Shown: piece by piece, positions 1-41,650 of the stretch
How the letters are laid out: the number at the start of each line of letters is the position of its first letter
How positions within the stretch are numbered: the stretch's first letter is position 1
Origin: Mobula hypostoma
Lineage: Eukaryota
Reading direction: 5' to 3'
Assembly (NCBI RefSeq): GCF_963921235.1
Contig: NC_086108.1
Location: forward strand, 48,362,001 to 48,426,000
DNA length: 64,000 nucleotides
Translations under genes and position numbers: made by a program
The notes under the pieces: model-generated
Told to the model about the DNA's origin: nothing
Database searches by the model: none
The model's input: the letters and a program-made list of their open reading frames with translations, nothing else

Positions 1-1580
1 TGGAAAATGTCATTTACAAAAATTAAAAAAGGATGGAGGTCTTACTTTGCCTAATTTAAGAATGTATTATTGGGCGGTTAATATATGTTATGCGTGTTCT
101 TGGTTATATTGGACCGATAAAAAGGAACAAACATCTTGGGTTGATTTGGAATTGAAAACTGTGAAACAATTTCATTTAACTTCGTTATTAGGAGCTCCTT
201 TACCTGTACAATTAGCCAAAATTTCTATTCTAAATATAAATCCTATGATTAATCAATCATTTCGAATCTGGTACCCGTAAGTTTTTTAATCTCAAACAAT
301 TTAACATTTTTAGTTTAATTTATCAAAACTATTTATTTAAACCTTCACTTAGTGATCCTACCTTTTCTCTTTGGAGGAATAAAGGATTTTTTTCCTTTAT
401 GGACTTGTTTCAAGAAGGTTGATTGATGTCCTTTCAGAAATTAGTAACTAAATACTCTCTCTCATATTCATGTTTTTTGCAATATCTTCAGTTCAGACAT
501 TTCTTACAAGAATATTTAAGTAATTTTCCATATATACAAGACTCTGACATGTTAGACATTATTTTACAAATGAACCCTTTAGTGAAAGGTTTTATTGGGA
601 AAATTTATAATTTACTATTACAACAGGATAATTATCCTTTACTTAAGATTAAGCAAGATTGGGAAAGAGAACTTAATATGACCTTGATAACAGAGGATTG
701 GTTGAGAAATTTGAAGCTGGTTAACTCTTCTTCGATTTGTGCCAGTCATTCTGTAATTCAATTTAAAATTGTACATCGTTATTATTTGACAAAGGAGAGA
801 TTGTCTAAAATATTTCCTAATGTAAATAGTCAGTGTGATAGATGCAAAACTGAGATAGCTACATTGACACATACGTTTTGGTCATGTTCTGTATTGAAAC
901 AGTTTTGGAAATCTGTTTTTTCTACAATCTCTAAAGCTTTAAAAATCAATTTACAACCTAATAAATTGACAGTTTTATTTGGTATAATTCCTCAACATAT
1001 TCATGGTATTTCTATATCTGACCAATACATAATTGCATTTGTCACATTATTGGCTAGAATGGAAAGATGCCTCTGCTCCCACTTTGATACAATGGTTCTC
1101 TCAGGTGATGTTATGTCTTAGTTTGGAAAAAATTAGAAGTCGAACTTTTGATCCTAAATTTGACTTCGAGAAAAGGTGGGGTTCTTTTGCCTGTTATTAT
1201 CATTTGACTTGAGTTAATAAAGATGGTCCTTTTCTGATGCTTGGGTATATGGATTTGGTTGGCAGTTTGATGTCTTTTTTTTTAATGGAAGCTTGTATGG
1301 CGCATAGCTCCGGGTTCGTGCTCCAAATGTTTTTTTTTCCCTTTTTTTAGTTATTAGGGGTTTTCTCTGTTTTAGTTAGTAGGTGTTCTTTTTTTTCTTT
1401 CTTTCCTTTTTTCCATAGCTTTAATACTTTGTTTTTTTGATTATTATTGATATACTGTTTAGCCTGGTTGATAGTTTAACTCTTACTCTACATATAGATA
1501 TGTTATCTTGATTATTTTGATGTATTTTTCTCTCTTGTTGATTTTCAATAATAATTAATAAAAATATTTAAAAGGAAAAG
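1..1580 (+). mobile_element. L1-clade LINE 3' portion (degenerate ORF2 C-terminus plus T-rich 3' UTR)
   Basis: GGLTLPNLRMYYWA post-RT motif; C-terminal Cys/His motif CDRCKTEIATLTHTFWSC (ORF 423..1121); frameshifts and stops; ends AATAAAAATATTTAAAAGGAAAAG. Confidence 0.85.
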
Positions 1581-1812
1581 AATCTGTGGAATTCTCTGCC
1601 CAATGAAGCAGTGGAGGCTACCTCAGTAAATATAATTAAGACAAGATTGGATAGATTTTTGCTTAGTAGGGGAATTAAGTGTTATTGGGAAAAGGCAGGT
1701 AAGTGGAGATGAGTCCATGGCCAAATCAGTCATGATCTTATTTACTGGTGGAGCAGGTTTGACAAGCCAGATAACCTATTCCTGCTCCTATTTCTTATGT
1801 TCTGACGTTTAT
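1581..1812 (+). mobile_element. CR1 LINE 3' end
   Basis: NLWNSLP..AVEA.S...KTRLDRF ORF2 tail and a CR1-type 3' UTR ending tcttatgttct; same family as 20030..20390 and 27790..28030. Confidence 0.8.
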
Positions 1813-3950
1813 GGGTTTGATGTCCATTTATGCAGAGGGGAAGATGCTATTCCCGAATCGTATGCAGAGGGGAAAATGTGATTCCCGAATTGCTGAGTGT
1901 GTGCCTTTAGGCTTCTGTACCTCCTTCCCAAAGGTGACAATGAGAAAAGGGCATGCCCTAGGTGATAGGGGTCCTTAATAATGGACATCGCCTTTCGGTG
2001 GCACCTCTCCTTGAAGATGTCTGGGATAATATGGAGGCTAGTATCCAAGATGCAGCTGACTAATTTTACAAAGTTCTGTAGCTTCTTTTGGTCCTGTGCA
2101 GTAGCATCCCCATACCAGGCAGTGATGCAGCCTGTCAGAATACTCTCTATGGTACATCATCTATAGAAATTTTTGAGAGTTAGTCAGATAACTAACTAAA
2201 TCTGCTCAAACTCCTAGTGAAATATAGCCACTGTCTTGCCTTCTTTATAGCTGCATTGATATGTTGGGACCAGGTAGATCCTCTGAGATCTTGACACCCA
2301 GGAATGAGAAATTGCTCACTCTCTCCACTTCTGATCCCTCATTGGGACTGGTTCATGTTCTCTCATCTCACCCTTCCTGAAGTGCTTACTGACTTTGAGT
2401 TCAAGGTTGTTGCTGCAACACCACTCATCTAGCTGGTATATCTCACTCCTGTATGTCCTCTCATCTCCATCTGAGTTTCTACCAACAATAGTTGTACCAT
2501 CAGCAAATTTGTAGGTGGTATTTGAGCTATTCCTAGCCACACAGTCATGGGTGTAGAGGGAGTAGAGCAGTGGGTTAAGCACACACCCCTGAGGTATACC
2601 AGTGTTGATTGTCAATGAGGAGGAGATATTATCACCAATCCATACAGGTTGTGGTTTTCCAGTTAGGAAGTCAAGGATCCACTTGCAGAGGGAGGTACAG
2701 GAGCCCAGGTTCTGTAGCTTATTGATTAAGACTGTAGGGATGATGGTGTTAAATGCTGAATATAGTCAAAGAACAGCATCCTGACATGGGTGTTTGTATT
2801 GTCCAGATGATCCAAGGCCATCTGCAGAGCCACTGAGATTGTGTACACCTAGGCTCATTGTGGTGATGGACATTGCAGTGAGTCCAGGTCCTTGTTGAGG
2901 CAGGACTTGATTTTAGTCATGACCAACCATCTGAAGCATTTCATTATCGTAGATGTGAGTGCTAGTGGGCAATAGTCATTAAGGCAGCTCACACTTCTCT
3001 TCTTAGGCACTGGTATAATTGCTGACTGTTTGAAACAGGTGGGAACTTCTGAACAGTGAGAGTTGAAAATGTCCTTGAATACCCCTTCCAGTTGGTTGGC
3101 ACAAGTTTTCACTGCCTTACCAGGTACTCCATCAGGGCCTGCCACCTTGTGAGGGTTCACCCTTCTTAAAGACAGCCTGGCATTGGCCTCTGAGACAGAG
3201 ATCACAGGGTCATCGGGTGCAGCAGGGATCTTCAAGCTGTAGTTATATTCTCCAATTCAAAGTGAGCATAGTAGGTGTTGAGCTCATCTGGTAGTGAAGC
3301 ATCGCTGCCATTCATGCTGTTGGGTTTCACTTTGTAGGAAGTAATGTCTTGCAAATCCTGCCAGAGTTGATGTGCATCTGATGTTACCTCCAACCTCGCT
3401 CAGAATTGTTTCTTCACTTTTGAAATAGCCTTCCACAAGTCATACCTGGTTTTCTTATACAGACCTGAGTCACCAGACTTAAATGCCACAATCTAGCCCT
3501 CTGTAGATGACGAACCTCCTGGTTCATCCACAGCTTTTGGTTTGGGGACGTAGAGTAAGGTTTCATGGCACACACTCATTCACACAGGTTTGCATGAAGT
3601 CAGTAAAAGCTGCTGCATACTCATCCAGGTTCAAAGATAGATCCCGGAATACAGCCCAGTCCACCGATTCAAGGCAGTCCTGTGCTTCCCTTGGCCACAC
3701 CTTCTTAGTCCTCACTATTGGTACTAGACTTCAGTCTCTGCCTATACTCAGGGAGTATAGAAGTACAGTCAGGTGATCAGACTTTCCGAAGAGTGGGGAT
3801 GGAAAAGCATGGTGGGCACTCTAAATAGTACTATAACAGTGGTGCAGTGTGTTGTTTCCTCTGGTACTACGAGTGATTTGTTGATGGTAATTATTTAGTG
3901 ACTTTTTCAAGCTGGCCTGGTTAAAATCCCCCAAAATAATGGTGAAGACT
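1813..3950 (-). mobile_element. Rex1/Babar-type non-LTR retrotransposon remnant (APE + RT)
   Basis: Minus-strand ORF pieces GDFNQA...GKSDH (APE end), [46 protein letters not shown]; multiple stops and frameshifts. Confidence 0.85.
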
Positions 3951-5387: not shown

Positions 5388-5563
5388 TTCCCCCAAATAT
5401 CATGGGAGAGGAGCAAAATGTCTCAGTTGCCATCAACCAAGGTGTTGTGCTGAAGTGTCAAAGCAATGCAATCCCTCCTCCAATGCTCAACTGGCTGAAA
5501 GATGGAAAGCCGCTGTTCAAGAAGCCAGGCCTCACTGTTTCCGATGACGGAAGTACCCTGCAG
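5388..5563 (+). CDS. HMCN1: Hemicentin-1 exon (window exon 1), N-terminal half of an Ig I-set domain: (V)PPNIMGEEQNVSVAINQGVVLKCQSNAIPPPMLNWLKDGKPLFKKPGLTVSDDGSTLQ
   Basis: Poly-T tract + ttgcag acceptor; CAG|gtaagt donor; phase 1 to 0; VPP..C..G/A.PPP..W.KDG hemicentin Ig signature; resembles human HMCN1 as I recall it. Confidence 0.92.
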
Positions 5564-6531
5564 GTAAGTTACAACAATGTTACCTACATATATATGCGAC
5601 TGTAGCTTTACCTTTGTAACAGATGATTTGTAATAGATTTTTTCTTGCACAGAGTTGCACTGATTATGACATTCTAAATAAGTCAAAATGACATCAAGGA
5701 AGGCTCTTCATATTAGGTTATCATTTTACCTCAGTGGTCTTACTTGAAGAAAAATGCTGGAGTAAATATGAATAAGTGACTGATATTTTCACCGAGCTTG
5801 GGTAGAACCACTGAACATGCCCTGAGGCGTAAAAAAATTGAGACATTGAGTCAAATTCATAAGAATAATATCTATTTATTTAAAATCTTTACAAAACAAA
5901 TATGCTGTAGTTTTAAGTTTTAACTATTGCTATGAGTTGCAATAAATAAACCTCAAATTATCTAAGGAATTACTGGAGGATAACAAACTGTAGAAGCACA
6001 ATACATGTACTGGAGTGTGATAATGGTTAGATTTTACCCAACAGTTTTAGGTTTTTGGTATTGCATAGTGTTTTTTTTTTTGTGGGGCACATGGTCCAGG
6101 GAAACCTGAGTGAACATTCGTTCTTTTTAGTTTTTGAGGTTCTTTTTAAATTTACTTTTTAGCTGGTTCCGCTCAACATTGTGGGCGAAGGGCGTCTCTC
6201 TGTGCTGTACTGTTCTATGTTAACAGGACAAGCATTGTGAAGTCCATAAAGTAAATTTGATTAAAATATTGTGACATCAACTACACAAAGACAAAGAAGG
6301 GTGTTAGTGTGGCTGAATTTGATGCTATATTATATACAGTAAAAGGAAAAGAAAGAATGGATTAAGGGCAAAAACATTAATTTAAAAAATTCAGAACTTA
6401 ACATTTTTAGCATGAAAATAAGAGCAGGTGTTGGCCATCAAGCCCTCCCTGCCATGGGAGAAGAGAAACCATCCTAACACCTACCTTGTCAATCTCCCTT
6501 AGGACCTTGGATGCTTGAATAAGGCTCTGTT

Positions 6532-7482
6532 TGTCATAAGGTGGTGGCTGAGAACGGACCCAAGTGCAAGACATAGACACTGAAGTACTAGGGACAGGAC
6601 TAGGATAAAGGGTGAGGGCTAGGACATGGACACGAAAACAGGAACCCGGAACAGGACTGGACAAGAGAGCTAGGAGCCCGGGCTTGGACTCCGAGCCAGA
6701 GACTGGACAAGGACCCAGAATCTGGGTCTTGCCTCTGGCTCGGATCCCAGAACTAGGCAAGGACGTGACTAGGCTGGCAGGTAGGACGTGACTGGAGTCT
6801 TCAGACTTGAGGCGAGGCTGGAGACCAGAGACTTGAGGCGAGGCTTGAGATCTCGAAGCTTTGCTTGGGGCGAGGCTTGGCTAGAGACTCAAGGTGAGAC
6901 TCAGCTAGAGACTCGAGGCGAGGCGAGGCTAGAGACTTGTGGTCTTGAAGCTCCTCTTAGGCAGGGCACGGTACTCCTGGGCAGGGTGCAGTACTCTACC
7001 CGATGGAGGCAAGGGACAGGAAGGGACAGGACCCACCGCAGGGTAACGGCAATCTGGCCTGACTTACCCGATGGAGGCAAGAGACTTGAAGGGACAGAAC
7101 AAACCACAGGGTAACGGCAAGACGGCCTGGCTTACCCGACGGAAGCAAAGGACAGGAAGGGACAGAACCAACCACAGGGTAACAGCAAGACGGCTAGGTA
7201 CAAGGTGGCTCCAAGACAAGACTTCAGGTGAGGCGAGGCGAGGCGAGGCTTCAGGCGAGGAAACAGAAGGCAGGGGAAGGGATACAAGGAGTAAGGACAA
7301 GAACAATCCAGCAGCCATGCCCTGGTCTCTGGAGATATTTATGCAGCCAGACCCAACGAGAATCAGCTGCCTCAATTAGTGCTCCTCAGGAACAGAAACA
7401 GGGTAGACCGGAAAACCTGGAGCAAGGGTCAATGGACCGGACGGTGAACCGGAATGTGGACTTCACGGACCGCACCATGACA
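6532..7482 (-). mobile_element. Solo LTR (Gypsy-like), 951 bp, inserted in a minus-strand CR1 remnant
   Basis: Termini TGTCAT...ATGACA; perfect 5-bp TSD CTGTT (6527-6531 and 7483-7487); CR1 sequence resumes on both sides; orientation inferred from a GCACTTGGGTCC...TGACA 3' end. Confidence 0.85.
6805..7200. repeat. Internal tandem repeats of the solo LTR: short GAGAC(TC)GAGGCGAGGC units, then three ~68-bp units TACCCGATGGAGGCAA...CAGGGTAACGGCAA
   Basis: Directly visible; the 68-bp units start near 6997, 7066 and 7133. Confidence 0.8.
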
Positions 7483-7770
7483 CTGTTGAACTCTAATAAA
7501 TATTGGCCAAACCTATTTAGTTTCTTCTGGCAGGCTAACCCTCTCATCCCAGTAATTAGCTTGATGAATCTCCCTTGTATTGCCTCAAATATTACTGCAT
7601 ATGTTGTCAGATATGGGGAACAAAACTTTATCCATATTTGCAAGTAAGGTCTCACTAACAATCTATACAATTGCAACAAAACCCCCCTTTTTTTAACTGC
7701 AACCTCTTCACAGTGAATGCCAAAATGCTGTTGCCTTCTGAAATATTTGTTGGACCTGCCTGATAGCTTC
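7483..7770 (-). mobile_element. CR1 LINE remnant (host of the solo LTR; also ~6440..6531)
   Basis: ORF 7386..7679 LQLYRLLVRPYLQ..IKFCSPY...EAIQGRFIKLI, typical CR1 ORF2 C-terminal region. Confidence 0.75.
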
Positions 7771-8044
7771 TTGTGAATTATATTGAGAAATCTATAAAAT
7801 CTTTGATAATTAAAATACTAAGGGGGTGAAATTATCTCTGTTGATTGTAATTTATCAATACAAAATGTTTATTACTTATGATATCACTGAAATGTTGTTA
7901 AATTGTAATGTACAACTTTGGGTTTAGTCTGAATGTACAGTGCAGATTGCAGCTTAGTGACATCAAGAGGATTATACAAAGCCGATGCTGTACTCTGCGA
8001 TTCAACAGTAACTTTTGAAGTTAAATGAAGTTGAGAGGTATAGA

Positions 8045-8250
8045 TAGTTATTTAAGATGAGAGGTAGACCATTCAAAGGACATGTGTGGGGCAAGTTTTT
8101 TTTCATGCAGAGAGTAGTGTGTGCCTGGAATATGCTGAATGGAGTGGTGGCAGACATGGATACGATAGAGGCAATTAAGTGACTCTTAAATAGGCACGTG
8201 AAACTGTAGAGAATGGAAGGATGTAGACCATGTTCAGACATTAGCTTAAT
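8045..8250 (+). mobile_element. CR1 3' fragment
   Basis: FKMRGRPFKG..FF..RVVCAWNML pattern. Confidence 0.6.
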
Positions 8251-8256
8251 TAGTTC

Positions 8257-8915
8257 AGCATCAATAGATCTGGGGTTGAGAGGATGAACGGCTTTAAGTT
8301 CCTCGGCATATACATCAACAAGGATCTCGTGTGGTCTGTACACACCAGCTGTGTGGTGAGAAAAACACAACAGCACCTCTTTCACCTCAGATGGTTGAGG
8401 AAGTTTGGTATGGCCCCCAAATCCCAAGAACTTTCTACAGGGGCACGATTGAGAGCATCCTGACTGGCTGCATCACTGCCTGGTATGGGAACTCTACCTC
8501 CCTTAATCGCAGGACTCTGCAGAAAGTGGTGCGGACAGCCCAGCACATCTGCAGATGTGAACTTCCCATGATTCAGGATATTTACAAAGACAAGTGTGTA
8601 AGAAAGGCCCGAAGGATTATCAGGGACCCGAGTCATCCCAACCACAAACTGTTCCAGCTGCTACCATCTGGGAAACGGTACTGCAGCATAAAAGCCAGGA
8701 CCAACAGGCTCCGGGACAGCTTCTTCCACCAGGCCATCAGACTGATTAATTCATGCTGATACAATTGTATTTCTGTGTTATATTGACTGTCCTGATGTAC
8801 ATACTATTTATTACAAATTACTATTGCACATTGCACATTTAGATGGAGAAGTAACGTAAAGATTTTTACTCCTCATGTATGTGAAGGATGTAAGTAATGA
8901 AGTCAATTCGATTCA
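8257..8915 (+). mobile_element. Rex1/Babar 3' end
   Basis: ORF 8331..8759 FYRGTIESILTGCITAWYG...LLPSGKRY..IKARTNRLRDSFFHQAIRL; short-repeat tail caattcgattcaa. Confidence 0.85.
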
Positions 8916-9389
8916 ACGTAATAGGTTGATGCCTGTACCTGTGGTGTACTGTTCTATGTTCTCACTCCCGCATTTCCTGTTTATCATGCATGTGCATTTA
9001 CTGTGGTACTATTTCTGCTTCAGAACAGTAAGTGTTATTAGTCTCTGTTATGTTGAGAGTGAATTATAAGTTGATATTTTTTAAATGGATTTCTTTACAC
9101 TTGCTTTTTGCTCGCAAATGCTGTTACTTCTGAATGTGAGCTGCTACTATATGTCAGCTTGAAGGACTGCAATTTTAGGACCTTCACTCAAGCCCTTAAC
9201 TAACTGACCATTTGCTGGCACTCTGTGTTTCAGTACATTCTACCACTGGGTTCTCGTGAGATCCATTTCTTCCAAAATATTAACTTTTTTCATAATATAT
9301 ACTGTAAGTACAATTGGGATATGAATTGTTCTTACATTCATTGTACATCCTTTCAGTACTTTATCTTACAATGCATCAGTACCACTCAT

Positions 9390-10330
9390 GTTGCCTCTTT
9401 AAACAATGCTATCATGTGAATTGTTTCAGAGGTAATGTGCTGGAGTTACAAAGGATGACCCTGGTTTTGTTCCTGTGCAACATTCCATTCAGTTGGATTT
9501 TACTGCACCGCCTGCCTTTGATGAAAAATGCCTGTGGAAAATCCCCTTTGACCACAAGCCCACCAGACCGTGTTGGAGAAGAAGATGGTGGCCAGGTTCC
9601 ATGCCTCTTTGCAGGAACTGACATGCAAACCCCAAGCCCTTGCTTGGCTGGTAGTGAGAGGGGCCCTTCCCGTCTGATCCTTTGTGCACAGTTAGGACTG
9701 CAGTCCCACTGACTGCTAACTTCGGGATGCCTGCAGTGCGGATGAGATGGTTGTCTATCTTTTCATGCACTGTTTATTTCCCAGTGAGGCCTACAAAAGG
9801 GTGCGGTTGTCCTTCCAGAGGTTCAGCTCAAGCGGTGCATGACAGGTGACCCTGTGATCTATGGTTTGTTCCCAGGGAAACATCCAGACACAAGCACTGA
9901 TGAATTTTGGTGTTTTAATCTGCGGTTCTTTTAGAAGTCAGGAACGAGGCATAAAACTTGTTGCTTCATAATTGTTTTATTAAGTGTTGATAGAACAGCG
10001 GAACGGCAGCAGAAAGCTTATAGATAAGAGAGTAAGAAGATTGTGATTAAGATGGTGCTGTTTTGTGTTTAGCTACTGTATATCCATAAAGAAAATAAAG
10101 AATTTATTCATATCTATGGATAAGGATAAACCAACTATTTAGATCCAGCAGCGCCATGTGATTCTGGAATGCTATGGTGGAAAACACATTTTGCTCTGCC
10201 AAGCCTCGTTAGCCTTCTAGTATAAGGGGATGCCCACAAGAAACATTCCTGTTCAGTGCATGCCAATGTATATGCTGAGAGATACATTGGAGCTTAGTCT
10301 AGCGAATGCAAAGGGAAGTGTCTCAGGCCC
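9390..10330 (+). mobile_element. Old Tx1-like (L1 clade) ORF2 C-terminal remnant, interrupted by an insert at 9898..10150
   Basis: Degenerate ALAWLVVRGALPV...C...E.V.YLF.HC...VIYGLFPGKHPDT before the insert; YMLRDTLEL.LANAKG after it. Confidence 0.55.
9898..10150 (-). mobile_element. Small solo-LTR-like insert
   Basis: TG...CA ends; near-TSD GCAC/GCGC; minus-strand AATAAA near 9975; splits the Tx1 remnant. Confidence 0.4.
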
Positions 10331-12139
10331 TGTAGCCACTGGGTATTAGGACATTAGGACCATGTAACAGCCCAATGCCACAGCTCCATCTTAATGAGGT
10401 TTATTCTGTGTCAAACCACAATTTATTTCAAAAGGGATAATGGAGCTGCAAGTCCAAAAGTTAATTACTCTGTTAGCATATTGAAATTGTTACTGTTTTT
10501 ACTTTTACTTGGTGGGACTAGGTAAGAGTAAGAGTTCGGCACGGATTAGAAGGGCCGAGATGGTCTGTTTCCATGCTGTAATTGTTATATGGTTATATGG
10601 TTAATAATAGTTTAATTGTAGTTAATGTAAATTGAGTTTTGAACAGGTTTTAGATTTTAGTTTATTCTTATTTTTACATTTTACATTTTATATTTTATAT
10701 TTTTGAACTGTTTTTGAATGTCAAGGATATTCAGCAATATTTATATTTCCTTGTCATTTTAATGGCCAACAAAGCTTTGGTTGGGCCGATATGAGGTATC
10801 AAAGCTGCGTGATAATTTATTTTGGTGGGCATGGGTGTCCCCACTTCTTTATTATTCTAGACCCCACTGCTGCAGCCTGGAACAACTCAGATCAACAAGG
10901 AAGAACTTTCACATTATGGGCAATATTTCACATCACCCAATTCAAGACAATTCCATTCAATTGATCACATCATTTAGTGACTGATACAAAAACTGAGATG
11001 TACTTTGGAAAGCAGCTATTTATTTTGGCTCAATTTATGGGTGAATAAAAGCCATTCCAAGTATTGTGAATGGCTAGCCAACTATTTTCAAAGGGGCTTG
11101 TTGATATTTATATCCAGTAGGAAGTTGCTATTAACAGGTCTGAGACAAATGTATGATTCATCTCAAACATCCAGTAGTTCTCTCTTTCCTGTCTTCAGTT
11201 TACATCCTGTTCTTGATTCATGATATTCTGATTGGTTTAGGAGGTTCACCATTTCTTTCCTGTTCACTCACATTGTAGGTGCCCTGGTATGATTGATGGA
11301 ATATCAGCAATTCTCAACCTCAGCTATTTGTCTCCAAAAAAATATCTCAAACTTGATTGCATTGGGGGACATGCTACTAATAATAGGTTGTCTAAAATTA
11401 AATTATGGCATATTGTTAGAGATGTCTTTGGTCTTTGTTCTGATGCATTTCAAAAGGTTTCCAATCAATTACCTGAGATTAACCTTCTCAAAAGTGGCAT
11501 TGTTAAAGCAAAGTTGAAATATTTTAAATGAACAGCCATGAAAGATGTAAGGGGGTTCTGTGTTCCGAGAATTGATTGTATATTCATTATTGATATAAGA
11601 TCTTGGAAATACGATATTTGAAATTATTCTGTATTTAGCCAAATAGTAGCTTCTTGCCTAAGTTACAACCTAATTGCAACTTCATTCTATCTCCCAGTCT
11701 GAACTCAAGGGATCCATACAAGAATGTAGTTTATCCACTGTGATGGGAATTCCTGCCTAATTTCTTGGGCTTCTTTACATTTTATAATTATTCATTTTTC
11801 AGGATCTGGGCCAGCATTTATTGCCCATCTCAATTTTGTATTGATGGGAAAACCTTGAATGGCAAGAATAGATAGCACTGAAGTAATATTTGTGATACAC
11901 TTCTACACCAGGAATGCTATTTGTCCCTCATGATCCCATGACTGAATGTTGTCTCATTTGTACAGAATGATAGTATTGGCTAATCATTTGCTGAGGAGAT
12001 AGAAATACAATAGAAAACTGTGCACTAGATAGCGAACATGTGAATTTATGACAGAAGGAAGGTCTTTCATGAAGCAACTGGAGTTTTTAAGGCTGTAATT
12101 ACTATCTTGAGGAATTCCTGAAATAACATGACTGACTTC

Positions 12140-15100
12140 TAGTCCGTGAGCCAGGACCATCTGGGGGGAATAACTCTTATAGTGATTTTTGGCAAGGTTA
12201 TTACCCCTAGTGCTAGAAAATATGTGATAGCATTGCAGCAGTGGCAGCTTTCTGTGTATATCAGAACTGATATCATAACTAACAAGATGATTGTACAAGT
12301 CACTTCTTTGGTCATGAAACTCAAATCTTTCATGCTACCTGGTGGAGTTACACTCCTGCAAGGTTCTACAAGGAAGCACATTCGTAGGAAACTGGAATCG
12401 GAGCTGGGCAATTCAGTAAATATATTTCCAGATGACAAAGGAAAATTGTTAATGGTTCCTGAAAGTGTCTCATTAAGGGACGTTATCTTGGAAAATCAAA
12501 CTCTACAGAGGGAACTCAAAGTTTGGAGGGCCAAGGCAACCAATTTCGACAAGATCATAGATCATCACATATCAGATCAATCATGAGACAGGAGATGACT
12601 GTGACTCCCTGACCATTCCATCCATCAGATGTGAAAGACAGTGCTCATACCTCCATACCGGATCAACTAGAGCAGTTTCTTGTTGGATTGCTCACTGGAA
12701 ATCCTGACACCAAGACTCAAACACAGAGGGTCACTGCTCTGGTTCAGTCATTTAGTCAGGACATAATATATGCTGTGACATGTGGTCAACATAAACCACC
12801 AAAGCACCTTCTGCTTCCTTATGCAGTAAAAACACTGACGGGTAACACTGAGCTCATCCAAACACTGAACAGGCTTGGGCATGGGGTGTCTCACTCCCAA
12901 CTTGAAGAGAATGACACTGCTTTGTGTCCCCAAAAGATAGCAACAGCCTCCAATCAGGGAGTTATATTTCCAGCCTCCATCAAGTCTCACGTCTTCACCA
13001 GTCTTGCATGGGACAATATCGATAGACTTGAGGAAACCCTCACTGGAAAGGGTACATCACATAGAATCAATGGCATAGTAGTACAGGCCAATGTCTATGG
13101 ACCACATCTGCCAAGAGCTGAGCTTCCACACATTGAAAAACTGAAGCAGAGATCAGTCACCATTGAGGACCAAGAACTGGAAGTGTATGTAGCAGGTGCA
13201 CATGTGGGCCCACAGCCTTTCCCCACCAGGGAACACTGTGTCCAGGAAACCAAGAAAGCTGCTCTTCCTGCCTGCAGGTGTGGACACTTGCATGGCAAAC
13301 AGATCCAGAGAATTAGACAATCCCAAGCTGGACTGGTTTTACTATCAACACCAGGGACCAAGAACCAATCTCACAAGATATTGTTGGGTATCTGCCAACC
13401 ATCAATTCACCAGCCACAGAGTTGACCACAGTATCTGAAATCCTGAACCAATCAGAGCTAATCAGGAGGGAACTTCATCTAGAAACAATTGTGGCAGTCA
13501 TGGATCAAGCACTCTATGCAAAAGCCACTGAAATTGCCTGGAAGCACAAAGAGCGCTTCTCCAACATTCTTCTCAGGATGGGGACATTCCATACCATATG
13601 TAATGCCTTAGCCATCCTAGGAAAGTGATTTCAGGATGCTGGTCTAAAGGACGTATGCATAGAGGCTGGAATTGTCACAGAGGGGTCCATCAATGGAGTC
13701 CTTGATGGTAAACACTACAGTCGTGCTGTCAGGGTCCACAAGTACATCTATGAAGCACTGATGAGACTCGCATGGGCAGAGTTCACTCCATGGGTTGAGG
13801 ACAACGTTCCAGAGAGGAATGAGATGATCAAATCATTCTTAGACCATGTGAACGACATGGCCAATGACTTGAACCAACAGAAGTTGAACAATCTGCTGCA
13901 AAGTCCACTCTTAGCTGAGCTGATAACCCTGTAGACAGACATTCTGGAACACCTCCGTCACAACAATGGAGAGCGATTCGCATTCTGCATATCATACATT
14001 AGCATGGAAGAGAACGGGTACTTGGGCTTCTGCACACCTCTCGTGAGGGGGTCTGGGAGTTGCACCTCCATGCTATAAGAACCATGATCCCATGGTGCTT
14101 TTCCTATGATAAGATGAATTATGCCAGGTACCTGTCCCCTTACTTTGCTCAGATGATGAACCTCCCAGAGAAGAATCCTTCTGTGTATGAGGCCTTCAAG
14201 ACAGGTCAATTCTCAGTGCAGCTGTCAGGTAACAACCCCTTTGGGCAGGTCCCTGTGGACCAGGCTATTGAAGCCACAGTGAACAAAGACCAGCACCCGA
14301 TGCCGGCCTGGATCTACCGGCCTGTAACTGTCCAGAAAAATGTTTACTCCCAAGATGTATGTGTGTTGCAAATGGCCTCAGGTGTATTGACATGTGTGGA
14401 CTGGCAGACTGTGAGAACCAGGCATCCACCTCAGAGAGTGTGGAAAGTTCAGATGAAGATGTGGAAGATGTGGAAAATTATTATGATAATTAATAGGTTA
14501 TGAAAGTATGGAAAACAAAGTATGGAAAGCAGCCTTAGATTAAATATATTTATTTTATAACCAAATGGATCCTAGGTTATGGTCGTGTGGAACTCCACGT
14601 TTGAATTATTGTACAGTAATTCTATATGCTATGACAAAAGCTTAAGATTGTTTTGATTTGATACAACAATATGGAAAATATCATGACATTGATAAAACTC
14701 CAGAAATCTCTCCAAATGAGGTTTTTTACCTTTGGGGGGGTGGGGTAATTTTCTGCTGTACTAATGTTAATGTGGAATATATACAAAAAGTGATTACTTA
14801 TTTGAGTTCCTGAATAAATTCTCTACAAATCCATGTGGTAATATGTGTCCTATGGTTTTTATTGACATTTCCAAAATAAAAAACAGAAAAATATTTTTCT
14901 AAAAACGAAATGATTCACTTTACTGAAATTGGGAACTGTACTGGGAGTGCCACCAATGACATAGTTTTCAATGTAGAATTTTATAACATTTGATGAAAAG
15001 TGCTTGAACTCAGCTATCATTGTGACAAATTTCAATGTTAACGATCACTGATGACAAAATACCACTAGCTTGAATATATATGTTGTACTTTATACTGGCC

Positions 15101-15281
15101 ACTTTTCAGAAATGCTTATTTTAGGGTAGTGTTATAAAATGCATGATGGCACACGTAAAGCTACCACTGATGCAATGCTATCACATATTTTCTAACTCTA
15201 GAGAAATATACCTTGCCAAAAATCACTATGAGCATTATTCCCCTCAGATAGTACCAACCAACCCGACTGGCTCACAGACTA
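12140..15281 (+). mobile_element. Academ-type (AcademX-like) DNA transposon, internally deleted and degenerate
   Basis: 5'-TAG...CTA-3' termini; ~125-140-bp imperfect TIRs (12140-12263, 15144-15281); 3-bp TSD TTC; fragmented transposase with AWDNID, MDQALYAKA, RMGTFH, YARYL, VDQAIEATVNKD; C-terminal CXC domain. Confidence 0.8.
12264..14493 (+). pseudogene. Academ-type DDE transposase pseudogene with C-terminal CXC (tesmin/CRC-like) domain
   Basis: ORF pieces 12146..12586, 12631..13425, 13422..13628 and 14060..14290 join through frameshifts and stops; 14290..14493 reads PAPDAGLDLPACNCPEKCLLPRCMCVANGLRCIDMCGLADCEN, then an acidic tail and stop. Confidence 0.75.
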
Positions 15282-15941
15282 TTCCCACAATAGTGTCCAT
15301 TTTCCTTTCTGTACAGCATGGTGCTGATTATTGTATAGTTTTTATTCAAAGGTTTGCTGTGCTCCTTGATGTCACACTTAGTGAAATGGTGCCTGCTGTT
15401 AAAGGTAGTCACTCTGAGCTGACCTTTGGAATTTGTCTCGAGGTCCTTGCTTTAGATTAAGACTGCAGTGAGATCTGGAACTGAGATGCACTAGTGGAGC
15501 CCAAACCTACCTTCGGTGGGCACATTGTTGGTGACTAAGCGTTGGTTGCTTCCAGCACTTTGCGAGTGAATGAGAGAAGATTGAATAGGGGTAATTAGCA
15601 GGTTTGAAGTTGCCCTGTTTTTTGTGAGCAGTTGGTAACTGCAGCATTTTCCACGTTATTGGGTAACTGTCATGCCAACTGTTGCATGTTCATTATGCCC
15701 AATACTTATTTACCAATTGGTCTGGTAAAGGCATTTTCCAAGTTAAAGGGAGCATAGACGCACATTCATTGATTTTATCGTGTTTCTTTGTATCTATTGT
15801 GAATGACCGTAAGAAAGTGAATCTCAGTATGTACTTTGATATTAAATTTTCTTTGGACTTTTGAACTTCGTGCAGGAAGAGGCAATAATAAAATGCAAAA
15901 TGATATCAGGCACTAATAAATAAGGACCAAATAATTTAACC

Positions 15942-16025
15942 CAGTACTGATGAAAGGTTTCGATCTAAAATGTCAACTATCCATTTTCCTCCTGACCTGC
16001 TGAGTTCCTCCAGCATTTGGTGTAC
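15942..16025 (+). mobile_element. Penelope-like element terminus fragment with a degenerate hammerhead core
   Basis: CAGTA-CTGATGA-AAGG...-AAAAT-GTC-AACTA followed by cctgacctgctgagttcctccagcatt, the same repeat as at 48510 and 62400. Confidence 0.55.
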
Positions 16026-16046
16026 CGCACCAAATAATTTAAGATG

Positions 16047-16975
16047 CAGTGAATCCTGGTTAGTGGGACAGGTGCTTATCTGGGAAACTCTTAGAGAACA
16101 AAAATTAATCGAGAAAATAGCCCGGATTTCCTTTGTTTATTTGAGACACTATGTTGCTTAATTGGGACAGGAGACTGTTGCCAAACAGTTTTTAACTAGC
16201 GTCAGATGCTTGCACCTTGTGTGACCATTATAGACTAAATGCTTAGCGAGAACAGTTTTTAAAAAGCATTAGTTTTGCTTGTTTGTGTTCAAGATGTAGT
16301 GATTATTGTCACTAATAATTGGTGAGAAATAAGCAGTAAGACAGTTCAGAACTGTTTTGCGTACTGCGGTTTCAAGATTTCAGACTTGGATATGCAAGAA
16401 ACTGCCAGGAGTGAAAATGAGGCGATTTCATTACTTCAGCAAGTTGAGAACCATGAAGAATTTTAAGGTATTGACAGTGTTACAATGAAAATAAAGTCTT
16501 GGAGGATGCAACAGTTTCTAACCAGCACCAGTCGTGTGCACTTGTGCTGCTGTGAGACACTACACCCTGCTTAGAGCAACATTTTATTAAATAGCTTCAA
16601 TTGCGTGTGCTTGTGTTATGCTATTCATTTGGGCTGACTGATACTGAATTTAAAGAGCAGTGATTTTTAACGCTACTTCATGCAGGAAGGCAATGAAGGC
16701 AGTCCACTATCTGTGCTAGATGTCTGTGCTAATTTTGTTCATTTACAGTCCATCAAAAGAACACGGCAGACTCACTGGATGAATGAATCCGTCAATACCT
16801 GTTAGGAACTAATACACAGTTTTATAGTACTGTAGTAACATTAGTAGTGTTATAATTTGTTCTGTACTTCATAATTTATGACTCACTTGAACAGTAGGTT
16901 TTAAAACTATTTCCATAAAACTAATTGGGCCAAATGCAATGGTCTCAATGTGTCCCAATTAATTGGAATCTGCTG
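16047..16975. mobile_element. Tigger/pogo-like (Tc1/mariner) non-autonomous element
   Basis: Imperfect ~24-bp TIRs CAGTGAATCCTGGTTAGTGGGACA and TGTCCCAATTAATTGGAATCTGCTG; TG flanks compatible with a decayed TA TSD; internal ~60-bp duplicated segment. Confidence 0.6.
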
Positions 16976-17265
16976 TGTTTGTAAAAGAATAAATAAAATT
17001 TCACTGCATTTGACATAAATGTTCAGGTTGGTGAGAGAAGGCTCCAGTAAATTGAGGCACTGATCCTCAAACCCCCTGAAAAGTTCCTGACTTTGACACT
17101 ATCGCCTGCATTTGAAAAAAGTCAGTTATTGGGAAATGTAGAAGCAAGAAACTTACGTTATCTGACAAGCTAACATAACATTAATGTGCTTCAGTATAAG
17201 TATCAAATTTATTAAAAAAGGAAGCTCATTCCAAATATGAAATATATTTTTCCCTTATCTCTCAG

Positions 17266-17362
17266 ATTGAATCTACACAAGTCCTGGATACAGGACGTTA
17301 CACATGTGAAGCCATAAACATAGCTGGTAAAACAGAAAAGAACTACAATTTAAACATTTTGG
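17266..17362 (+). CDS. HMCN1: Hemicentin-1 exon 2: IESTQVLDTGRYTCEAINIAGKTEKNYNLNIL
   Basis: ctctcag acceptor, G|gtaagc donor, phase 0 to 1; DTGRYTC Ig F-strand motif; too short for the ORF track. Confidence 0.92.
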
Positions 17363-39469: not shown

Positions 39470-41650
39470 CATAAGACCAGAAGACATAGAAGCTGAATTA
39501 AGCCATTTAGCCCATCGAGTCTGCTCCACCATTTAACCACGGCTGATCCTTTTTCTCCCCTCCTCAGCCCCACTCCCCAGCCTTTTCCCAATAACAATTG
39601 ATGCCATGTCCAATCAAAAACCTGTCAAGCTCTGCCTTAAATACACCCAACGACCTGGCCTCCACAGCTGCCTGTGGTAATAAATTCCATAAATTAACCA
39701 CCCGCTGTTTAGAGAAATTTCTCTGCATCTCTGTTTTAAATGGACGCCCCTATATCCTGAGGCTGTGCCCACTTGTCCTAGACTCCCCCATCATGGGAAA
39801 CACCCTTTCCACATCTACTCTGTCCAGGCCTTTCAACGTTCAAAAGGTTTCAATGAGATCCCCCCTCAACCTTCTAAATTTCAGTGAGTACAGACCCAGA
39901 GCCATCAATCGTTCCTCATATGATAACTCTTCATTCCCGGAAACATCCTTGTGAACCTCCTTTGGACCCTCTCCAATGCTAGCATATCTTTTCTTAGATG
40001 AGGAGCCCAAATCTGTTCACAATACTTAAGGTGAGGTCCAACCATTACTTTATAAACCCTCAGCATCACATCCTAGCTCTTATATTCTAGACCTCTTGAA
40101 ATGAATGCTAACATTACATTTGCCTTCCTCACCACCAACCCTCCCTGCAAGTTAGACTTTAGGGTGTTATGCACATGGATTCTAAGTAGTCCCAAGTCTA
40201 CCTAAGACCTTCTGCAGCCTGTTTCCTCAGCACCACCTGCCCCTCCTCCAACCTTTGTATCATCTGCAAACTTGGCGACAAAGCCATCTATTCCATCATC
40301 TAAGTCATCGATATACAGCATAAAAAGTAGCAGTCCCAACACTGAACCTACAGAACACCACTGGTCTCTGACAGCCAAACAGAAAAGGATCCTTTTATTC
40401 CCACTCGCTACCTCCTATCAATCAGCCAGTGCTCCAACCATTCCAGTAACTTTCCTGTAATGCCATGGGCTCTTAGCTTGGTAAGCAGCTTCATGTGTGG
40501 CACTATATGAAAGGCCTTCAGAAAATCCAAATATACAACATCCCCTTTATCTATTCTACTTGTAATCTTCTCAAAGAAAACCAAAAGGTTCGTCAGGCAA
40601 GATTTTTCCTTAAGGAAACTATGCTGACTTTGTCCTATTTTGTCCTCTGTCTCCATAACCTCATCCTTAACAATTGACTCCAACATCTTCCCAACCACTG
40701 AGGTCAGGATAACTGGTCTATAATTTCCTCTCTGCTGCCTTCCTCCTGTCTTAAAGAGTGGAGTGACATTTCTAATTTTCCAGTCCCCTGGCACCATGCC
40801 AGGATCCAATGATTTTTGGAAAATCATTTTTAATGCTTCCATAATCTCTACCGCTACCAATTTCAGAACCCTAGAGTGCAGTTCATCTGACCCGAGTGAC
40901 TTATGTGCCCTTAGGTCTTTCAGCTTTTTGAGCACTTTCTCCCTTGTAATAGTAACTGCACTCACTTCTCTTCCCTCTCACCCTTCACCATCTGGCACAT
41001 TGCTAGTGTCTTCCACAGTGAAGATTGATGCAAAATACTCATTTAGTTCATCTGCTATCCCCTTGGCCTCCGTTATTATTTCTCTGGCCTCATTTTCTAG
41101 CGGTCCTATATCCACTCTCATCTCTCTTTTATTTTTTACATACTTGAGAAAGCTTTTACTATCAACTTTGATATTGTTTGCTAGCTTACTTTCATATTTT
41201 ATCTTTTCTCTCCTAATGATCCTTTTAGTTGCTCTCCATAGGGTTTTAAAAGCTTCCCAATCCTCTGTCTTCCCACTAATTTTTGCTTTGTTGCATACCC
41301 TTGCTTTTGCTTTTACATTAGCTTTGACTTCCCTTGCCGGTCACAGTTGTACTATTTTGCCATTTGAGTATTTCTTTGTTTTTGGAATACATCTATCCTG
41401 CACCTTCCTCATTTTTCCTAGAAACTCATGCTATTGCTGTTCTGCTGTCATCCCTGCCAGCATCTCCTTCCAATTTACTTTGGCCAACTCCTCTCTCATA
41501 TCATTGTAATTTCCCTTACTCCATTGAAATACTGCTTCATCAGACCTTACTTTCTCCCTATCGAATTTCAAGTTGAACTCAATCATATCGTGATCACTGC
41601 CTCCTAAGGTTAGGGTTATTTTATCTTAAGCCCCCTAATCACCTCCCCAT
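39470..41650 (-). mobile_element. CR1 LINE, ~2.2 kb (end of APE, RT, 3' UTR)
   Basis: GGSDHDMIEF; ORF 40408..40965 ELHSRVLK...DWKIRNVTPLFK.G....NYRPV.LTSVVGK...VYLDFLKAF; 3' tail tctatgtcttctggtcttatgg on the minus strand. Confidence 0.9.

Follow-up and report, generated by a model that had tools for sequence, protein, structure and literature searches.

How did a DNA transposon whose closest named relatives lie in bony fishes come to sit in the genome of a cartilaginous fish? We analysed a stretch of 64,000 nucleotides from Mobula hypostoma (NC_086108.1, positions 48,362,001 to 48,426,000; hereafter the window), which contains an element of 3,142 bp (12140-15281) in an intron of the hemicentin-1 gene and in the same orientation as the gene. 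This element is a dead, non-autonomous and doubly deleted copy of a cut-and-paste transposon of AcademX type, and its place in the Academ superfamily is close to certain. The element is real, dead and ordinary as a copy; its interest lies in how it probably crossed from one of the two lineages, bony and cartilaginous fishes, to the other, and in the long and short ends of its family.

The boundaries of the element are read directly at both junctions, where TTC is followed by TAG (12137-12142) and CTA is followed by TTC (15279-15284). The TTC on each flank forms a 3-bp target-site duplication (TSD; 12137-12139 and 15282-15284, + strand). The terminal inverted repeats (TIRs) are approximately 115-130 bp long, bipartite and unequal. 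The left TIR starts with a terminal block of 15 bp (12140-12154, +) that is complementary to 15267-15281 at 14/15 positions and resembles the ends of the related loci L005-L029. It continues with an inner block (12155-12257, +), of which 12156-12257 pairs with the right inner block (15151-15252) at 85 of 102 positions. The right TIR (15151-15281, −) ends with CTA and is 13 bp longer, with the extra bases lying in the spacer between its two blocks. The inverted repeat reaches a best score of 112 bits, whereas 100 doublet-shuffled versions of the region give 26.5 bits at most, which rules out a chance palindrome. Contamination or misassembly is ruled out as well. Contigs of sequencing run X1, which may be the source sample itself, span both junctions with 0 differences, thus the assembly is sound at the element, and the related teleost proteins sit on contigs of 34-46 Mb. 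No second copy of the element was found within the window.

Between the TIRs, we find the broken remains of a transposase gene. In total, 730 codons in five pieces can be read in register, which yields a remnant of about 700 amino acids (aa), less than half of a protein of about 1,570 aa. Measured on the 1,569-aa reference protein P0001, the remnant retains the DDE core (residues 223-906) and the Cys-rich tail (residues 1497-1568). It is interrupted by four stops (at 12610, 13314, 13626 and 13932) and by three frameshifts (at about 12550, 13278 and 14010). Two deletions have shaped the copy. At the first joint (12250-12257, +), the TIR abuts codon 223 of P0001, whose tblastn match begins with residue 223 at base 12257; in the comparison to the relatives L008 and L014, the TIR match stops at 146 and the coding match starts at 1116-1118. 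This deletion removed about 1 kb, including the promoter region, the start codon and 222 residues. The transposase pseudogene (residues 223-906; 12257-14290, +) follows, with an RNase H-type DDE core that contains a large helical insertion. At the second joint (14288-14293, +), which is out of frame at about 14290, residues 907-1496 (about 1.77 kb) are gone, and with them the last part of the transposase and the entire FEN1/XPG-type nuclease. Downstream lie the C-terminal Cys-rich (CXC/TCR-like) domain with an acidic tail (14293-14490, +; residues ~1497-1568, 69% identity to P0001) and a 3' non-coding part (14491-15150, +) that is AT-rich by base composition and has a high summed contig depth. 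An autonomous element has an intact open reading frame with a start codon and the nuclease, whereas here residues 1-222 and 907-1496 are absent. We rejected a co-option by the host, as the pattern is one of neutral decay; the copy is inert intron DNA without a sign of host function.

The lost parts can be seen in relatives. A search with a 270-aa frame of the window retrieved 175 longer relatives, many of them 1,550-1,590 aa in length. The proposed catalytic acids are the codons at 13012 (D), 13503 (D) and 14270 (E), which correspond to D35, D202 and E456 of alignment A2; the two aspartates are invariant in 62/62 rows, and the glutamate is conserved in 90% or more. In the structure model of the eel protein P0064 (predicted local distance difference test, pLDDT, 82), which has the strand order of RNase H and a helical insertion of about 220 residues, these acids fall on strand 1, on strand 4 and in the helix after the insertion. 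The best structural match of this model is the P element transposase (Z 9.4, root-mean-square deviation 4.7, 276 aligned residues), the one chain with Z≥8 among 48,161, and integrases and Hermes come next. RAG1 and Transib are absent from the best 50 structural matches listed for the DDE model, which excludes nothing. The 5.5-kb relatives are filled by a single frame of about 1,570 aa whose C-terminal half is predicted to fold as a nuclease. For the C-terminal frame of L003 (pLDDT 83), which covers the part deleted here, all seven Foldseek matches at E≤0.001 are 5'-nucleases (XRN1/XRN2/FEN1/T5), and the acidic motifs of the nuclease are invariant or nearly so in alignment A3. The C-terminal tail matches PF03638 with an E value of 0.0012 (19.5 bits, under the cut-off of 23.5), and one relative matches DUF6589 weakly (E 0.0098). 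No Pfam family was above its cut-off in six window fragments or seven related proteins, and no helicase family was found in the seven proteins scanned. The PDB sequence search with P0001 gave no match. The Atlas search gave nothing usable for the N-terminal part, and eukaryotic clusters as well as one TCR-bearing cluster for the C-terminal part. In the perch gene model P0135, the last ~110 residues are unlike the C-terminus of the family and perhaps represent another nested element.

A first-pass annotation of the window had read an Academ-type transposon of AcademX kind in a vertebrate intron from the TTC duplications, the TAG and CTA ends, imperfect TIRs of about 125 bp and a broken transposase-like frame of about 700 aa with three candidate catalytic acids; all of this agrees with our findings. 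It had further described Academ as rarely reported in vertebrates, which is overstated. Tables of repeat content list Academ for zebrafish, medaka and stickleback, where it makes up 0.01-0.02% of the genome (PMC4746887), and an amniote-age Academ fossil is present in human (PMC9004415). The genome of the elephant shark is described as poor in DNA transposons (PMC6817897). We found no report of Academ in sharks or rays, or of AcademX in a non-teleost vertebrate, in the literature covered, with Repbase Reports, most subscription journals and supplements lying outside this scope; within the same limits, no report was found on Academ with XPG or on Academ with asymmetric TIRs or a spacer.

To which hosts do the closest relatives belong? 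Among the matches listed (120 of 175 and 120 of 386, 240 in total), the closest named proteins come from five teleosts (80-86.5% identity to the window copy), and every named match above 70% is a teleost. The in-register identity is 383/443 for the eel (86.5%), 549/661 for the perch (83%), 292/361 for the minnow, 187/233 for the alewife and 214/267 for the seabream, and 589/718 for P0001. Identities are 63-67% for the snow crab, 61% for an amphipod and 45-54% for cnidarians, a mollusc, amphioxus and a sea spider. A second Academ-type lineage of teleosts is present in Cirrhinus and Epinephelus (P0094 and P0117); the two proteins are 81% identical to each other and 48-49% to the window copy, and they lie outside its clade, among invertebrate rows.

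In the phylogenetic trees, the window copy groups with the five teleosts and other rows (Shimodaira-Hasegawa-like approximate likelihood ratio test, SH-aLRT, 99). The path from the window copy to the eel is 0.13-0.14, and the end branch of the window copy is 0.09-0.095. From the letters at the changed sites, this end branch is decay of this copy. It contains 29 departures at 311 columns that are fixed in four intact proteins. At 25 codons where collapsed X1 contigs read another letter, 10 changes are silent and 15 are replacements; for the latter, the majority letter gives the perch residue in 13 cases and the window residue is favoured in 0. With the decay set aside, approximately 0.04-0.05 changes per site separate the window copy from the eel, compared to 0.67-0.72 for the host gene hemicentin on the path to teleosts. 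Thus, at the protein level and in comparison to one host gene, the similarity of the transposons is far above that of the host genes. We conclude that this lineage has probably been transferred horizontally between bony-fish and cartilaginous-fish lineages, in either direction and either directly or through a carrier. A clade of teleosts without the window copy (approximately unbiased test, p-AU, 0.46) and a pair of window copy and eel (0.19) are both not rejected, which is compatible with a transfer in either direction.

Several points weigh against a transfer. The trees, with 44 and 15 rows, are quick searches, and the per-site test of the 25 codons was drawn from 40 of 314 rows. The evidence is a comparison of proteins rather than of synonymous divergence (dS), hemicentin is a single, moderately fast gene, and the teleosts in the hemicentin comparison (goby and goodeid) differ from those that carry the element. 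The host tree excludes the window from the teleost pair and does not itself show a cartilaginous fish. Furthermore, no chondrichthyan protein is named among the 240 matches listed.

The main alternative is vertical inheritance: the element would have been present before cartilaginous and bony fishes split, and purifying selection on active copies would have kept the similarity. Academ is old in vertebrates, as seen from the fossil in human and the second fish lineage, and cartilaginous fishes evolve slowly. In addition, the branching order alone fits the host tree, as the clade of teleosts without the window copy is not rejected. However, vertical inheritance would have to reconcile the short distance to the eel with the much longer one of the host gene, and the element copies of perch and minnow are 94% identical, whereas the hemicentins of goby and goodeid are 80% identical. 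We thus consider vertical inheritance unlikely and prefer a transfer between the two fish lineages.

The first-pass annotation had suggested horizontal transfer from a marine invertebrate. A horizontal transfer as such is supported for the reasons given above, whereas an invertebrate donor is not supported. Many more distant relatives are indeed found in invertebrates, and the sister rows P0001 and P0008 as well as most rows at 65-80% identity carry no species label and could hide a closer invertebrate carrier. Yet the named matches above 70% are teleosts throughout, and a clade of window copy and snow crab is rejected (p-AU 3.7e-12). That a marine invertebrate passed the element recently and directly to the host lineage also fits poorly with a copy that is decayed and doubly deleted, and we regard this as slightly less plausible still than vertical inheritance.

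Transfers of this kind are common in fishes, and the transfer alone is therefore unsurprising. Academ has been estimated at 638.9 transfers per million copies, which is above mariner and hAT and the highest per-copy rate named (PMC12400950), and transfers are especially frequent in ray-finned fishes (PMC7070016). The main text of the latter mentions neither Academ nor cartilaginous fishes, and the supplements of both may list Academ transfers in fishes. Our finding adds a little-studied transposon superfamily to a cartilaginous-fish genome and describes what is likely a transfer between the two sides of the earliest divergence of jawed fishes.

How old is the copy within its host? We used contigs of sequencing runs, where the summed depth gives orders of magnitude and not copy numbers. 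In X1, the summed depth is 6-14 for the unique flanks and an exon, 105-137 for the 5' coding part (12542-13162), 5,260 for the left TIR bin and 7,200-11,600 for 13991-14818. Joints from 12250 to 14064 (X1, X5) and from 12253 to 14043 (X1, X5, X15) define an abundant derivative of about 1.3 kb. The depth does not fall at 14290, thus most of these derivative copies share the central deletion. At the same time, five X1 contigs per side of 14290 extend into the missing nuclease part, which shows that undeleted copies exist in the host species. Among 12 listed interior pieces of organism A, 11 differ from the window copy by 2.4-7.2% and one by 12.7%. In organism B, which also carries the family, the flanks differ from the window by 8/621, 16/541 and 1/657 (0.2-3%). 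The first-pass annotation had suggested that the element may be a fairly recent invader on account of its readable frame fragments. This age is doubtful, as the copy is doubly deleted and its divergence from the family majority, mostly 2-7%, exceeds that of the flanks between the host and its close relative. The wave of transposition thus probably predates the split of the host and organism B, and the copy is readable but not recent. No listed contig of organism B crosses a junction; site 12892 has the window letter at single-copy depth, a weak hint of the same insertion. Nine organisms (A-I) contain 0.09-0.34 of the words of the element; the comparison at the level of contigs or reads covered organisms A, B and J. 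In run X21 (organism J), two partial reads match the element and even the abundant flanking repeats are missing, so that this run is uninformative.

The host gene was identified from its exons. These encode immunoglobulin (Ig) I-set domains on the + strand, colinear with hemicentin-1, and one match is named Hemicentin-1. The matched part of the upstream exon (5402-5566, +) is followed by a GT donor, and that of the downstream exon (17263-17358, +) is preceded by an AG acceptor just upstream. The two exons encode consecutive residues of P0159 (487-548, then 547-576) and of P0158, and the element is therefore intronic. About 20 hemicentin-1 Ig exons lie at 5381-59885 (+), and the 15 that were translated contain no stop. 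Over these 15 exons, the identity amounts to 73% with sturgeon, 65-66% with seal, partridge and each of two teleosts, and 47% with hagfish; the counts are 454/685 for the goby and 466/723 for the goodeid. In the hemicentin tree, the two teleosts pair with a support of 100 and the window lies outside, which fits a cartilaginous fish. Between the element and the next exon (15854-17095), we observed very high-copy repeats (summed depth up to 4e5 in X1), which are probably pieces of short and long interspersed nuclear elements (SINEs and LINEs). Fragments of LINE reverse transcriptases are located at 423-1121 (+), 1809-3256 (−), 8002-8759 and 40408-41340 (−), two of them with matches to zf-RVT and RVT_1.

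Lastly, we compared the ends of the element to those of 41 related loci, 14 of which have both ends in view. As the first-pass annotation had expected of other copies, a 3-bp TSD together with TAG and CTA ends is found in 12 of these 14. As exceptions, L011 has no TSD and L020 looks chimeric; L028 and L029 are probably one insertion. Relatives that seem to be of full length measure 5.43-5.48 kb (L005, L008, L014 and L026), and L010 measures 6.19 kb. The ends of the relatives are bipartite, and in three families the left end exceeds the right by 9-10 bp. In L018 the right end is 10 bp longer, as read by eye from the printed ends, and L011 is symmetric. Long and short bipartite ends that differ by 9-10 bp thus occur in the families of L005, L008, L018 and L028, and L011 has two short ends and inverted arms of about 680 bp. 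The right end of the window copy is of the short type (anchor offset 60 compared to 58-59 in the short ends of relatives), whereas its left end falls 22 bp short of a long one (anchor offset 47 compared to 69 in the L005 family). To judge from the joint, this loss of 22 bp in the left spacer would lie between two ACC triplets as present in the long end of L018. An internally deleted derivative of about 3.4 kb recurs in WLWD01 records (L012, L017, L019, L020 and L025), in parallel to the window form.

These observations suggest how the family might move. The full parent of about 5.5 kb would have encoded one protein of about 1,570 aa that comprised an N-terminal part, the DDE transposase, the FEN1/XPG-type nuclease and the CXC tail. 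This protein may have bound the long and the short end, cut the element out and inserted it at a target opened by a cut with a stagger of 3 bases, and the role of the nuclease is probably to remove flaps or overhangs at the junctions. The lineage would have crossed between bony-fish and cartilaginous-fish lineages, directly or via an unsampled carrier, and given off deletion derivatives that were moved in trans. One such derivative would have inserted into the hemicentin-1 intron, followed by neutral decay. A bolder version is that one AcademX lineage has moved through fishes time and again, both between the cartilaginous and the bony lineage and from one teleost order to another, and that its transposition requires a pair of bipartite ends, one long and one short, which differ by one helical turn (9-10 bp in four of five related families), where the fused nuclease finishes the junctions. 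We put this forward tentatively and would sooner bet against it than for it. If it is true, near-intact fish copies would make the mechanism of long and short ends and nuclease testable in vertebrate cells, and the window copy with its loss of 22 bp would be a natural end mutant. The better use of the family is mechanistic, as it joins a DDE transposase to a 5'-nuclease between unequal ends, and perch and eel still possess long open frames.

The remaining question is how the family relates to known systems. TAG and CTA termini, long TIRs and a Cys-rich tail are traits of Academ, and the second nuclease of AcademX is of XPG type; this lineage was reportedly defined by Kapitonov and Jurka in 2010 and by Kojima in 2020. 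The window copy has the 3-bp TSD, the TAG and CTA ends with long TIRs, a DDD/E transposase and the Cys-rich C-terminal domain, and the second nuclease is found at the level of the family, in the predicted fold of L003 and in the contigs of the host species that run on into the nuclease part. Three points count against the assignment: the name Academ was assigned from diagnostic features rather than from a comparison with a curated Academ protein of Repbase or Dfam; both folds were predicted on relatives (P0064 and L003) and not on the window copy; and Foldseek gave no match at E≤0.001 for the DDE model. Membership in a different DDE superfamily (P, hAT or Kolobok-like) or in an unnamed one, with no more than a resemblance to Academ, is very improbable, because the best fold match to the P element, the lack of a Pfam family above its cut-off and the missing direct comparison to a curated protein stand against a 3-bp TSD, TAG termini, a length of 5.5 kb and a fused 5'-nuclease with CXC tail, which all fit AcademX. 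P and hAT transposons generate duplications of 8 bp, and the TSDs of the P element and Hermes are of a length other than 3 bp. Furthermore, the P element transposase (PDB 6p5a) and Hermes show about 9% identity and have no fused 5'-nuclease. The RNase H domain of Academ has been described as lacking a Pfam match (PMC5751038).

Within Academ, AcademX is characterized by a nuclease and a 3-4-bp TSD and AcademH by a helicase and a 9-10-bp TSD (PMC10045372; AcademX is also covered in PMC4455052). The window family thus differs from AcademH, with which it shares the superfamily, by a nuclease fold and 3 bp in place of a helicase and 9-10 bp. With AcademX it shares the 3-bp TSD, the DDE transposase and second nuclease of full-length relatives and the length of about 5.5 kb, as well as the ends and tail known from Academ; bivalve Academ elements, which are abundant, have a mean length of 5,565 bp (PMC10294476). 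In contrast to autonomous AcademX elements, the window copy lacks the start and the nuclease and is non-autonomous. The teleost members from Synaphobranchus kaupii (P0064), Perca fluviatilis (P0134/P0135), Phoxinus phoxinus (P0169), Alosa pseudoharengus (P0213) and Sparus aurata (P0133) have longer open frames than the window copy, and their database entries call them hypothetical or uncharacterised instead of naming a transposase. A movement between distant hosts has likewise been described for an insect Academ family, which was transferred horizontally between Lepidoptera and parasitoid wasps (Zhang 2016 as cited in PMC5704228); the hosts are insects there and fishes here.

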